41,580 nt of DNA from the IMG/VR virus record IMGVR_UViG_2565956608_000009. One strand, written 5' to 3'. Source of the DNA: a virus. Taxonomy: Duplodnaviria; Heunggongvirae; Uroviricota; Caudoviricetes. Shown piece by piece: positions 7,904-35,570 of the stretch. The first letter of the stretch is position 1, and every line of letters starts with the position of its first letter. The notes beneath the pieces were generated by a model that saw only the letters and a list, made by a program, of their open reading frames with translations, was not told the DNA's origin and did no database searches. The position numbers and the translations under genes are program-made.

Positions 7904-7919
7904 GGCCGCAAGAGCGGCC
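7904..7919. terminator. Bidirectional terminator hairpin between convergent genes
   Basis: GGCCGC-aaga-GCGGCC; T-rich on the minus side, moderately T-rich on the plus side. Confidence 0.55.
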
Positions 7920-8647
7920 TATCGTTTCGCTTTGTGCTCGTCCCAGCACGTTTTGCACCATGCCATTAAGCCATCCGCATTTTGATTATTAGGGTAAAAG
8001 CTGGTTCGTTTTCTGCGGACATTACAAATTGGGCACCACTTCATATGACGTGTATTCTTTGGGCCATCTAGACACCTTGCACACCACTTAGTCAATCCAT
8101 CTGGATTTTTTGACGATTTCCTGAATTTTTCATATGGAAGGTTTATTCTGCATCGCAAACACTGCTTGCGGGCACTTGAAACTTCGTTAGCTGATTCTTC
8201 TTTTGACGGCGATACAGAAGGTATTCTTGCTGGCTCTGATACTGCCTGAGGTGCTTTTTTAGGTGACTGAGACGATACGTCATCACCAGGGAATCTTCCA
8301 TGATATGCCGGACACGTTGACACTCCAGGTGGAAGCTCTGCTGTAAATGGCTTTGGCTGAATCAGTTGCCTCTCTTTTGCTAACTCCTGCTGTTTATAAT
8401 ATGTCTGGATTACCGCGCTATCATAAGCAGGAGGTACGGAAATATTAGGCGCATTATCTCCCGTTTTTTGAAACTGAGTGGAGGTGTGTTCTATCACCTG
8501 TGTACGATTAATCGTTATCTCCCCATCTTCAGTCTTTATCGTTTTGTTACGATTAACGACCGTACGATCAGAGATCTTAGTCTTGTTCTGGTGAAGGACA
8601 TAAATAATCACCGCAACCACACCAACAACTATCCAGAAAACTTCCAT
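7919..8647 (-). CDS. Membrane-anchored protein with C-terminal double zinc-ribbon (four CxxC pairs), function unknown
   Basis: 242 aa; one N-terminal TM helix (FWIVVGVVAVIIYVL) followed by basic residues; C-terminus CLRC...CARC...CPIC...CKTC; SD GAGGAA before ATG 8645-8647. Confidence 0.6.
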   Translation of the reverse strand: MEVFWIVVGVVAVIIYVLHQNKTKISDRTVVNRNKTIKTEDGEITINRTQVIEHTSTQFQKTGDNAPNISVPPAYDSAVIQTYYKQQELAKERQLIQPKPFTAELPPGVSTCPAYHGRFPGDDVSSQSPKKAPQAVSEPARIPSVSPSKEESANEVSSARKQCLRCRINLPYEKFRKSSKNPDGLTKWCARCLDGPKNTRHMKWCPICNVRRKRTSFYPNNQNADGLMAWCKTCWDEHKAKR

Positions 8648-8667: not shown

Positions 8668-8682
8668 TTACCTTAAAGGTAA
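8668..8682. promoter_or_regulatory. Operator palindrome TTACC-ttaaa-GGTAA
   Basis: Perfect copy; 21 nt upstream of the start codon of the minus-strand gene 7919-8647. Confidence 0.55.
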
Positions 8683-8760
8683 TATCTTGCTTTCAGGTGA
8701 TCAAGCGTTAAACGCCACCAACCAAATACGGTTGATTTTTATATTTCTCCGCGTTTATCA

Positions 8761-8775
8761 TTACCTTTGCGGTAA
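8761..8775. promoter_or_regulatory. Operator palindrome TTACC-tttgc-GGTAA
   Basis: Perfect copy at the head of the long leader upstream of the Bro-N antirepressor gene. Confidence 0.55.
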
Positions 8776-8810
8776 ATTTACATCGCACTCCTCTTGTGCC
8801 ATAGTAATCG

Positions 8811-8888
8811 GGCACTGGCAAAATCCAGTGCCGGGATTGGCGTCCCGGGTTACTAAGTGGCGCATACCACGCCAGACGTGGTTTTTTT
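8811..8888 (+). ncRNA. Structured leader / candidate small RNA or attenuator ending in an intrinsic terminator
   Basis: Three consecutive hairpins (GCACTGG/CCAGTGC 8812-8831; CCGGGA/TCCCGG 8831-8848; CCACG/CGTGG 8867-8881) followed by T7 run 8882-8888; located between operator 8761-8775 and the antirepressor SD at 9032. Confidence 0.35.
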
Positions 8889-9044
8889 ATGCGTTAAGCA
8901 CAGCTATATCCGAATTATGGTGGGCTGGGCAGGGGTCCGAAAGGACGCCGGTACCACTTAGGCCGGTACGCCAACCTTGTCCAGTTCACCACCAGTAATT
9001 GGCGTTGCGGTGGTGATTAAAATCACTAAGTGGAGATAACCACC

Positions 9045-9755
9045 ATGGCTAATGCTCAAACTTCCATCTTCAAATTTGAATCTGTTAACCCTATCCGTTC
9101 CATCATTATCGATGGCCAACCATGGTTTGTAGCCCAAGACGTTTGTAGTGCGCTGCGTATCCAAAACGTCACCCAAGCACTTGAAAAACTGGATGATGAT
9201 GAAAGGTCTATGTTCAACATAGGGCATGAACATCGTGCAATTTTTGACAGCCGAGTAAAAGAGATCAACATCATCTCCGAGTCAGGCCTCTACACACTGA
9301 TCCTCAGATGCCGCGACGCAGTGACACCAGGCACTATCCCCTACCGCTTTCGTAAATGGGTTACAGGTGAGGTTCTTCCTCAGATCCGCCGCACCGGAAG
9401 TTACATTAAAAACTCGCTCCCGCAGGAAGAACGCATAAAGATGGTTGCCGACCAGGTAGCCAACGCCACGGCGTCAGCAGTAATGCAGGCGATGAAGATA
9501 GAGAACAAAACCTACAGTGCCCCACTGAAGCCCGGCTACCGCAGTCTGATTCACTCGCCGTCTGGTGTTCTCGGCCTGACGGAGAACTCACTGCTGATGA
9601 ATCTGCTGAACCAGTTGCAGGACGACGGGCATGATGTATCGGGCGCGGCAGCGGAGCTGACCACCATGTTCTGCTACATCGTCGGTGTGAGCAAGTGCCT
9701 GCGTGATATCCAGACCCACGCGGAGTATATCAACGACAAAGCAGGGTTCTTCTGA
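9045..9755 (+). CDS. Antirepressor, Bro-N (KilA-N-type) N-terminal domain with Ant-type C-terminal domain
   Basis: Start ATG 9045 with SD GGAGA (track start is GTG 9030); N-terminal motif FVAQDVCSALRIQNVTQALEKLDDDE...YTLILR and VLPQIRRTGSY typical of Bro-N antirepressors. Confidence 0.8.
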   Translation: MANAQTSIFKFESVNPIRSIIIDGQPWFVAQDVCSALRIQNVTQALEKLDDDERSMFNIGHEHRAIFDSRVKEINIISESGLYTLILRCRDAVTPGTIPYRFRKWVTGEVLPQIRRTGSYIKNSLPQEERIKMVADQVANATASAVMQAMKIENKTYSAPLKPGYRSLIHSPSGVLGLTENSLLMNLLNQLQDDGHDVSGAAAELTTMFCYIVGVSKCLRDIQTHAEYINDKAGFF

Positions 9756-9827: not shown

Positions 9828-9842
9828 TTACCTCAAGGGTAA
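9828..9842. promoter_or_regulatory. Operator palindrome TTACC-tcaag-GGTAA overlapping a candidate promoter
   Basis: Perfect copy; preceded by -35-like TTGCAG (9800-9805) and -10-like TACTAT (9823-9828). Confidence 0.55.
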
Positions 9843-27033: not shown

Positions 27034-27070
27034 TTGACATTTAACGCACGAATTATTACCTTTCAGGTAA
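27034..27070 (+). promoter_or_regulatory. Candidate promoter (-35 TTGACA) with operator palindrome TTACC-tttca-GGTAA (27056-27070)
   Basis: Perfect -35 hexamer 27034-27039; perfect operator copy overlapping the expected -10/+1 region; directed toward the tRNA. Confidence 0.5.
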
Positions 27071-27392: not shown

Positions 27393-27469
27393 GTGGCATT
27401 AGCTCAGTTGGACAGAGCAACCGCCTTCTAAGCGGTCGGTCGCAGGTTCGAATCCTGCATGCCACGCCA
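27393..27469 (+). tRNA. tRNA-Arg (anticodon UCU), phage-encoded
   Basis: 77 nt with CCA; 7-bp acceptor stem GTGGCAT/ATGCCAC, D-arm GCTC/GAGC, anticodon stem ACCGC/GCGGT with loop CTTCTAA, T-arm GCAGG-TTCGAAT-CCTGC; internal to the prophage, so not the integration site. Confidence 0.85.
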
Positions 27470-30220: not shown

Positions 30221-30235
30221 TTACCGTTGTGGTAA
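30221..30235. promoter_or_regulatory. Operator-like palindrome TTACC-gttgt-GGTAA just upstream of the terminase small-subunit start
   Basis: Perfect TTACC-N5-GGTAA; only copy adjacent to the late operon; within the track's N-terminal extension of the 29607 ORF. Confidence 0.45.
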
Positions 30236-32412: not shown

Positions 32413-32489
32413 TTACCTCTGAGGTAATTAAAAACCACATAAGACACTAAATTAATAGAGTTTAGAATATTTTGTTACCTGATAGGTAA
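32413..32489. promoter_or_regulatory. Two operator palindromes (32413-32427 TTACC-tctga-GGTAA; 32475-32489 TTACC-tgata-GGTAA)
   Basis: Both perfect; between the P-like gene stop and the DUF1064-like gene start; the proximal copy overlaps the SD. Confidence 0.55.
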
Positions 32490-34764: not shown

Positions 34765-34796
34765 TTACCTATGAGGTGCATTTACCTGTTGGGTAA
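34765..34796. promoter_or_regulatory. Tandem operators in the divergent switch region (34765-34779 TTACC-tatga-GGTGC; 34782-34796 TTACC-tgttg-GGTAA)
   Basis: Two adjacent copies separated by 2 bp between the Cro-like and repressor genes; an AT-rich inverted repeat ATATTTATT/AATAAATAT lies at 34710-34733. Confidence 0.55.
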
Positions 34797-34851: not shown

Positions 34852-35436
34852 ATGAAAAGTATCCAGGACGTCCGCAGGCAAAATCTCAACGACTTGATCG
34901 ACCGTGAATTCAATGGTGTTCAGACGCGGATGGCAGAAAAACTTGGAACTCAGGCAAATCTGGTAAACCGCTGGGCTCTTGGCAAGAAGGTTATCGGCGA
35001 CCAGGTTGCGCGAAAAATTGAAGCTGCCGCCAATAAACCCCGTAACTGGCTTGATATCGATCGCTCGCTTTCTCAGGAAGGTTTTCAGCCTGTCGGCCCA
35101 AGCGACATTGGTCAGCTGGCGGCTCACAACCTGGAACGCTGGATGAGCGAAAGCCGCGACCTTTCAACACAGGGAAAACTTCACCGCGCATCCGGCGTCG
35201 CCCAGGTGACAATCAGCCGCCTGTTAAACAATGAGGTCAGCGTTTCCATTTCCACCCTGGAGAATGTTGCATCTGCATTCGGGCGTCACGGATATGAACT
35301 ACTGATTCATCCGCATGACCCTGCAACTATCAACTATGACCGCTCGCGCTACGCATTGTTACCTGAAACAGAGAAGGCAAAGATCGAAAGTTACATTGAA
35401 TTTGTCATCAACCAGAACGAAAAAAACAAACAATAA
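34852..35436 (+). CDS. Prophage repressor candidate: tandem helix-turn-helix protein without a peptidase domain
   Basis: 194 aa; two XRE-like HTH segments (QTRMAEKLGTQANLVNRWALGKK and LHRASGVAQVTISRLLNNEVSVSISTLENVASAFG); no S24 Ala-Gly/Ser-Lys motif; followed by a strong terminator. Confidence 0.6.
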   Translation: MKSIQDVRRQNLNDLIDREFNGVQTRMAEKLGTQANLVNRWALGKKVIGDQVARKIEAAANKPRNWLDIDRSLSQEGFQPVGPSDIGQLAAHNLERWMSESRDLSTQGKLHRASGVAQVTISRLLNNEVSVSISTLENVASAFGRHGYELLIHPHDPATINYDRSRYALLPETEKAKIESYIEFVINQNEKNKQ

Positions 35437-35493: not shown

Positions 35494-35570
35494 TTACCTA
35501 ACGGGTAATTTTTTTAACTCATATCTATTGACATCAAACCAGATACGCATAATTATTACCTCAACGGTAA
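35494..35570 (+). promoter_or_regulatory. Promoter region of the plus-strand early operon: operators 35494-35508 and 35556-35570 flanking -35 TTGACA (35527-35532)
   Basis: Both copies perfect (TTACC-taacg-GGTAA, TTACC-tcaac-GGTAA); the second overlaps the expected -10/+1 region. Confidence 0.55.

Follow-up and report, generated by a model that had tools for sequence, protein, structure and literature searches.

An IsrK-type small RNA and a C4 antisense RNA upstream of the Bro-N antirepressor gene of a phiV10/epsilon15-like phage

The DNA analyzed here (the window, 41,580 nucleotides in full) belongs to a phiV10/epsilon15-like podovirus, and its best match is Escherichia phage HEMP4, with 98-99% identity. 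An Rfam scan of the whole window returned three matches above the curated cut-offs, a tRNA, isrK and C4 antisense RNA, and no match to a riboswitch family or to a P4-type family. The tRNA is a tRNA-Arg (anticodon TCT) at 27393-27469 on the plus strand. The isrK and C4 matches are found in a structured leader at 8776-9044 that precedes a Bro-N antirepressor gene. The features of this region are listed below, with sites in the transcript written as RNA.

8761-8775, no strand assigned: operator palindrome TTACCTTTGCGGTAA, which abuts the -35 hexamer
8777-8805, plus strand: predicted sigma-70-type promoter, TTTACA-17 nt-(TG)CATAGT, with a predicted start at G8812
8812-8888, plus strand: IsrK-type small RNA (Rfam isrK), the equivalent of the P1 'a1b1' leader element
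8812-8831, plus strand: hairpin 1, GCACUGG (8812-8818) with CCAGUGC (8825-8831), 7 bp
8832-8847, plus strand: hairpin 2, CGGGA (8832-8836) with UCCCG (8843-8847), 5 bp
8837-8843, plus strand: a1, UUGGCGU, the complement of a', in the hairpin 2 loop
8853-8860, plus strand: b1, CUAAGUGG, the complement of b', 5 nt upstream of the terminator stem
8866-8871 and 8877-8882, plus strand: terminator hairpin, ACCACG with CGUGGU, running into T7 at 8882-8888
8913-8996, plus strand: C4 antisense RNA (Rfam C4, RF01695, 66 bits against a cut-off of 45, full length)
8919-8993, plus strand: predicted mature C4 of about 75 nt, from homology to the annotated 77-nt P1 C4
8918-8934 and 8975-8991, plus strand: C4 closing stem, enclosing a hairpin at 8935-8946 and a second hairpin at 8947-8967
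8917-8961, plus strand: remnant of the 'orf45' frame of Gifsy-1, 14 codons from an AUG at 8917 in the C4 5' strand to a TAG at 8959-8961 in the b' loop
8954-8961, plus strand: b', CCACUUAG, in the loop of the second C4 hairpin, P(unpaired) = 0.85, complementary to b1 and b2
8968-8974, plus strand: a', ACGCCAA, in the single-stranded joint of C4, P(unpaired) = 0.99, complementary to a1 and a2
8999-9005, plus strand: a2, UUGGCGU, in the antirepressor leader, at a position that matches P1 a2
9010-9017, plus strand: conserved segment GGUGGUGA just after a2, complementary to the C4 3' strand at 8986-8993 and alternatively to 9039-9044 before the AUG
9026-9033, plus strand: b2, CUAAGUGG, sharing its last two bases with the Shine-Dalgarno sequence GGAG at 9032-9035
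9045-9755, plus strand: Bro-N antirepressor gene (PF02498, E = 9.6e-20), the presumed regulated target, whose ATG at 9045 is also the RefSeq start

The operator has the form TTACC-N5-GGTAA, which occurs ten times in the window (8668-8682, 8761-8775, 9828-9842, 27056-27070, 30221-30235, 32413-32427, 32475-32489, 34782-34796, 35494-35508 and 35556-35570) compared to an expectation of 0.03. Three of the copies flank the gene of an HTH_3 protein at 34852-35436. From the sequence, this protein is likely to be the phage repressor, and we infer that the repressor binds the palindrome at 8761-8775. The copy at 8668-8682 is located just upstream of the start of a divergent ORF (7919-8647, minus strand) that encodes 242 aa with a hydrophobic N-terminus, a Cys-rich C-terminus and a weak, sub-threshold match to Stc1. 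The scattered palindromes recall the dispersed C1 operators of P1, and the P1 operator Oc4 occupies the same position upstream of the c4 promoters as the palindrome at 8761-8775 does in the window. In nearly all of the 34 homologous classes described below, including P1 with its P51b (TATAGT), the distance between the -35/-10 pair and hairpin 1 is constant, and the Gifsy-1 promoter (TTGACA-17-TATATT) is spaced as in the window. The original prediction, which was made from the bare sequence, had set the structured leader between this operator and the Shine-Dalgarno sequence of an antirepressor gene; both elements are in place, and PF02498 confirms that the gene is Bro-N.

The isrK model (RF01394) matches 8812-8888 over its full length (model positions 1-77) with 67.7 bits against a cut-off of 50 (E = 1.6e-12). 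The match has the layout of isrK, with two 5' hairpins and a Rho-independent terminator, a promoter at the start and an antirepressor gene downstream. The full c4-a1b1 model (RF03163) matches 8799-8851 with 44.1 bits (E = 5.6e-10), narrowly below its cut-off of 46.7, and the a1/b1 complementarity that defines c4-a1b1 is present in the window despite this score. The 77-nt stretch 8812-8888 has a minimum free energy (MFE) of -30.0 kcal/mol (z = -2.42), 4 of 200 shuffled sequences being equally stable, and compensatory changes are found in six of the seven pairs of hairpin 1 among the 34 class representatives. Both the fold and the isrK match bear out the three hairpins ending in a T7 run that had been noticed at first. 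These had been read as either a small RNA of roughly 80-110 nt ending near 8888 or an attenuation switch. The small RNA is upheld by the full-length IsrK match, but the classical terminator/antiterminator reading is not: in the isolated RNA, P(unpaired) is 0.11 for the 5' strand of the terminator, and neither the MFE nor the centroid fold of the isolated RNA contains the competing antiterminator helix that marks an attenuator or a riboswitch.

A further 150 nt of leader had been described after the terminator. The sequence is present, but it is not plain leader as it holds the C4 RNA gene and the target sites. The covariance-model matches to isrK and C4 have E-values of 1e-11 to 1e-12. C4 has an MFE of -43.1 kcal/mol with z = -4.64 on the plus strand, compared to z = -0.26 on the opposite strand, and its closing stem is 95% paired with seven compensatory pairs in the 34 class representatives; the three-helix fold of C4 is supported by both the score and the co-variation. 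By analogy with P1, whose C4 is reportedly processed by RNase P (Hartmann et al. 1995), the C4 of the window is probably excised from its precursor by the same enzyme. The original prediction was incomplete rather than wrong, as it overlooked both C4, which is the repressor in the P1 paradigm, and the three-way complementarity of the a and b sites. Judged from its sequence, the leader at 8776-9044 belongs to a known kind of phage immunity module that consists of two RNAs, first an IsrK-type small RNA and then a C4 antisense RNA. It is an unannotated example of this module, and no new kind of mechanism emerges from it. By analogy with the characterized systems, the module most likely controls translation of the Bro-N antirepressor.

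The a' and b' sites of C4, which are predicted to be exposed, are complementary to a2 and b2 downstream, with b2 at the ribosome binding site (RBS), and have a second pair of targets, a1 and b1, upstream. The composite TTGGCGT-N(5-25)-CTAAGTGG is found in the 41.6 kb only at 8837-8860 and 8999-9033 on the plus strand and at 8954-8974 on the minus strand, and shuffled sequences contain none. In isolated folds, b1 and b2 are only about 40-45% unpaired. Plain cofolding predicted no stable C4-leader or IsrK-C4 complex, the energies (-58.5 vs -58.2 and -73.3 vs -73.1 kcal/mol) giving almost no net gain; this null result is not decisive because loop-loop (kissing) pairing is outside the calculation. 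The segment at 9010-9017 co-varies with the 3' strand of the C4 closing stem in several lineages, and in the window it alternatively pairs with ACCACC just 5' of the AUG. Its sequence suggests that it may act as a cis switch in the unprocessed transcript. A leader hairpin (9010-9015/9039-9044) around b2 and the Shine-Dalgarno sequence is predicted in the window and in some homologues; it is not supported as a family-wide feature, with only 29-48% pairing and b2 in the enclosed loop in only 9 of 31 classes.

The comparative evidence comes from a pattern scan of viral contigs that gave 120 loci, which were filtered to 35 distinct (a', b') specificity classes, 34 representatives of which were aligned. 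The first contig pattern had GCCAACC fixed, which biases a', and its minimum gap of 50 nt left out the window; the filter was later relaxed. The spacing of the sites relative to C4 is fixed across the classes: the upstream sites a1 and b1 are at about -78 and about -62, respectively, and the downstream sites a2 and b2 at about +5 and about +32 to +40. A T-run terminator is found about 33 nt upstream of C4 across the family. Among the 34 representatives, a':a2 is paired in 100% and a1:a' in 99.6% of the cells, each with compensatory changes in four of seven pairs. b' is hypervariable, and b1 and b2 change along with it in the 35 classes. On the MAFFT alignment the hypervariable b regions are misaligned, so that only 34-52% of the cells of b1:b' and b':b2 are paired, and this measure was replaced by an anchor-based search for cognate and non-cognate matches. 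Cognate matches of at least 6 nt to both b1 and b2 were found in 83% of the classes, compared to 3.7% of 1190 non-cognate combinations. Membership in the two RNA families, the structure, and the three-way complementarity with its co-variation are shown by the sequence analysis. A GGAG/GAGG about 10 nt before a start codon is adjacent to b2 or overlaps it in nearly all classes, and the genes downstream of the modules are Bro-N, Rha-like, Ant-like or Icd-like. The b' of phiV10, CCUUUUAG, differs from that of the window at two positions, and b1 and b2 of phiV10 are changed to match, a situation that resembles that of P1 and P7.

The immI regions of P1 and P7 have the same order of features as the window with near-identical spacing, including a terminator-like hairpin and a b2 on the RBS of the next gene. 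In the P1 record the order is C1 operator, two promoters, a1, b1, c4, a2, b2 and icd/ant. P1 C4 has the same fold as the C4 of the window, with Rfam scores of 68.8 and 66 bits, respectively, and in P1 and P7 it is likewise the a/b sequences that set the specificity. The a' and b' sequences themselves differ (CUGUCAA and UCACUAAC in P1). In P1, the gene directly masked is the small icd gene, whose translation is needed for transcription of ant, whereas in the window it would be that of the Bro-N antirepressor itself, a protein that is unrelated to Ant1/2 of P1. P1 is also a plasmid prophage while the phage of the window is an integrating podovirus. The a1b1 region of P1 matches both c4-a1b1 (51.0 bits) and isrK (35 bits, full length including the terminator), from which it follows that IsrK and the P1 a1b1 leader are one homologous element. 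To our knowledge, the role of a1 and b1 in P1 has never been settled. According to reviews, P1 C4 represses the synthesis of Ant.

The second characterized relative is isrK-orf45(STnc1160)-anrP of the Salmonella prophage Gifsy-1. It has the same three IsrK hairpins with the terminator and a1 at +26 to +32, followed by a C4-family RNA and a2, and its b2 abuts the anrP Shine-Dalgarno sequence much as b2 of the window lies at that of the antirepressor. 'orf45'/STnc1160 (record L124, 34131-34316, minus strand) is a full-length C4 match with 69 bits, and Gifsy-1 IsrK also matches c4-a1b1 with 48.1 bits. A study by Hershko-Shalev et al. (2016; PMC4825925) determined that Gifsy-1 IsrK is a 77-nt terminated small RNA that associates with Hfq, that transcripts reading through its terminator form the antirepressor mRNA, and that anrP translation is increased more than 100-fold by IsrK supplied in trans. 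This expression and activity are known for Gifsy-1 only. In the same study a helix was defined by the compensatory pairs G28A/C162U and G31A/C159U (PMC4825925). With +1 at hairpin 1, these pairs fall on the a1:a' helix, position 1 of the isrK model in Gifsy-1 placing the published G28 and G31 on guanines of a1. The equivalents in the window are G8839:C8972 and G8842:C8969, G8839 being +28 and G8842 +31. A processed RNA of about 80 nt, STnc1160, comes from the C4 position, and its constitutive expression strengthened the toxicity of IsrK rather than relieving it (PMC4825925), which is a misfit with a simple scheme in which C4 represses and IsrK acts as a sponge.

The connection between the P1 and Gifsy-1 systems is absent from the literature that was searched, both for orf45/STnc1160 with C4 and for IsrK with c4-a1b1. 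The Gifsy-1 authors compare their system to seqA and CI of P4 and mention neither P1 C4 nor RNase P (PMC4825925), and a review from 2025 treats IsrK and c4 as two distinct systems. The presence of both RNAs next to a BRO gene has been noted for APSE phages. For the related Uetakevirus ZX5, overexpression of the Bro-N anti-repressor was found to lower lysogeny, with the RNAs going unmentioned (PMC9782041). The CI RNA of satellite phage P4 resembles the C4 of the window in being a processed small RNA that is complementary to sites upstream and downstream in its own transcript (seqA, seqB and seqC), but it causes premature transcription termination on replication genes whereas the proposed target in the window is the RBS of the antirepressor. 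P22, also a temperate podovirus, limits synthesis of its antirepressor (ant) with the sar RNA of its immI region. The sar RNA is encoded on the opposite strand across the RBS of ant, whereas the regulator in the window is encoded on the same strand, upstream, and would use two short separated complementary sites.

We consider it very probable that the region 8761-9044 is an RNA immunity module of the P1-immI and Gifsy-1-isrK type that precedes the Bro-N gene of a phiV10/epsilon15-like (Uetakevirus) phage, and that C4 acts as the repressor and the IsrK-like RNA as its decoy. How C4 is processed, which way the regulation runs, the decoy role and the control by the operator are all extrapolated from P1 and Gifsy-1. 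In this model, the promoter at 8777-8805, beside the repressor operator, would start transcription at about 8812. Most transcripts would end at the T7 terminator (8888) to give a 77-nt IsrK-like RNA that carries both a1 and b1, while those that read through would run across the C4 gene into the antirepressor gene. C4 (about 75 nt, 8919-8993) would probably be cut out by RNase P as in P1, and b' in its hairpin loop and a' in its single-stranded joint would then pair with b2 and a2 of the leader. Since b2 overlaps the Shine-Dalgarno sequence, it is proposed that this pairing blocks translation of the antirepressor and so keeps lysogeny. It is also proposed that the IsrK-like RNA competes for C4, as it bears the same two sites as the leader, and it may do so both in cis, as part of the precursor, and in trans, in its short terminated form. 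The balance between terminated and read-through transcripts would set the antirepressor output, and b' would serve as the specificity address that differs between related phages.

A different switch, modeled on Gifsy-1, would have the IsrK sequence pair in cis with C4/'orf45' so that the mRNA is silent, and the short IsrK would open this structure in trans and allow translation of an upstream ORF that is coupled to the antirepressor, with processed C4 being inessential. Mutational, gel-shift and fusion data exist for such a switch in Gifsy-1 (PMC4825925), the Gifsy-1 locus is homologous to the window in every feature, and the conserved segment after a2, with its alternative pairing to the C4 3' strand or to the region before the AUG, would suit a cis switch. 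The coupling itself is where this account meets difficulty. The Gifsy-1 frame, which begins at the AUG within the C4 5' strand, is 45 codons long and finishes at the start of anrP (AUGA), for which coupling has been reported, but the corresponding frame in the window is closed after 14 codons. Its stop precedes the antirepressor start by 86 nt, which makes Gifsy-1-type coupling impossible in the window. Of the 34 classes, 9 (the window and P1 included) have the frame closed inside C4, 3 have it finish at the start of the downstream gene and 18 have it in frame with that gene, and such high variability is not like that of a conserved coding feature. The position of b2, on the Shine-Dalgarno sequence of the antirepressor itself in the window and Gifsy-1 and at the corresponding P1 site, points instead to direct occlusion of the RBS. 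For the window we regard the Gifsy-1 type of switch as doubtful.

Attenuation of the P4 kind, which corresponds to the second option of the original prediction, was raised by the Gifsy-1 authors by analogy to the P4 CI RNA with seqA and seqC (PMC4825925), and it would have C4 pair with a1 and b1 on the nascent RNA and raise termination at the T7 run, which would make the control mainly transcriptional and autoregulatory. The end of b1 5 nt before the terminator stem fits this proposal. However, the terminator is predicted to form regardless of C4, as its 5' strand is already paired and has no antiterminator helix to compete with, and the location of b2 on the Shine-Dalgarno sequence in nearly all classes would be left unexplained. 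As the principal mechanism, we judge attenuation to be unlikely; it is compatible with masking of the antirepressor RBS by C4 and the two are not mutually exclusive. We give almost no credence to the idea that the ORF at 8687-8998 (103 aa) codes for a protein, or that the hairpins are chance structure with an ordinary terminator. An open frame is present, but it has a TTG start only with no internal ATG, spans the promoter, the terminator and two RNA genes, has no Pfam match and is absent from the RefSeq gene calls; a coding role was rejected on these grounds, in agreement with the earlier view that the frame is unlikely to be coding. The two covariance-model matches and the compensatory base changes are evidence against chance structure, and there is no plus-strand gene upstream for an ordinary terminator to serve.

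The model in which C4 represses and the IsrK-like RNA acts as a decoy can be extended to the whole family. In this extension IsrK would be the P1 'a1b1' element and STnc1160/'orf45' would be C4, and all of these prophages would use a two-RNA ratio device, in which a terminated decoy and a processed antisense repressor are made from one promoter and read-through sets their balance. The hypervariable b' (at least 35 classes) would keep co-resident switches orthogonal, and a cis switch would come in addition from the conserved alternative helix that 9010-9017 forms with the C4 3' strand. Taken together, these proposals are tentative, and we think it possible, though somewhat short of probable, that all of them hold at once.

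Of 5426 complete E. coli genomes, 457 carry the module, and it also occurs in 256 phage records, many Stx-converting phages among them; 93 E. coli records are at least 99% identical, and in E. coli SCU-116 the identity is 100% over 8756-9060. In the RefSeq and phage records that were inspected, the BRO-N CDS is annotated and neither RNA gene is, and the sole annotation at the position of the module in the phiV10 record is "putative rho-independent terminator". The module would decide whether the antirepressor is produced and hence whether the prophage is silent or induced. Its recognition prevents the ORF at 8687-8998 from being called a gene, pinpoints the exact bases to be mutated in studies of prophage induction, and joins the literature on P1 c4 with that on Gifsy-1 IsrK. 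Four of the viral contigs (L012, L023, L040 and L093) each contain two IsrK-C4 modules that differ in a' or b', which suggests, from sequence, that orthogonal switches exist within one element.
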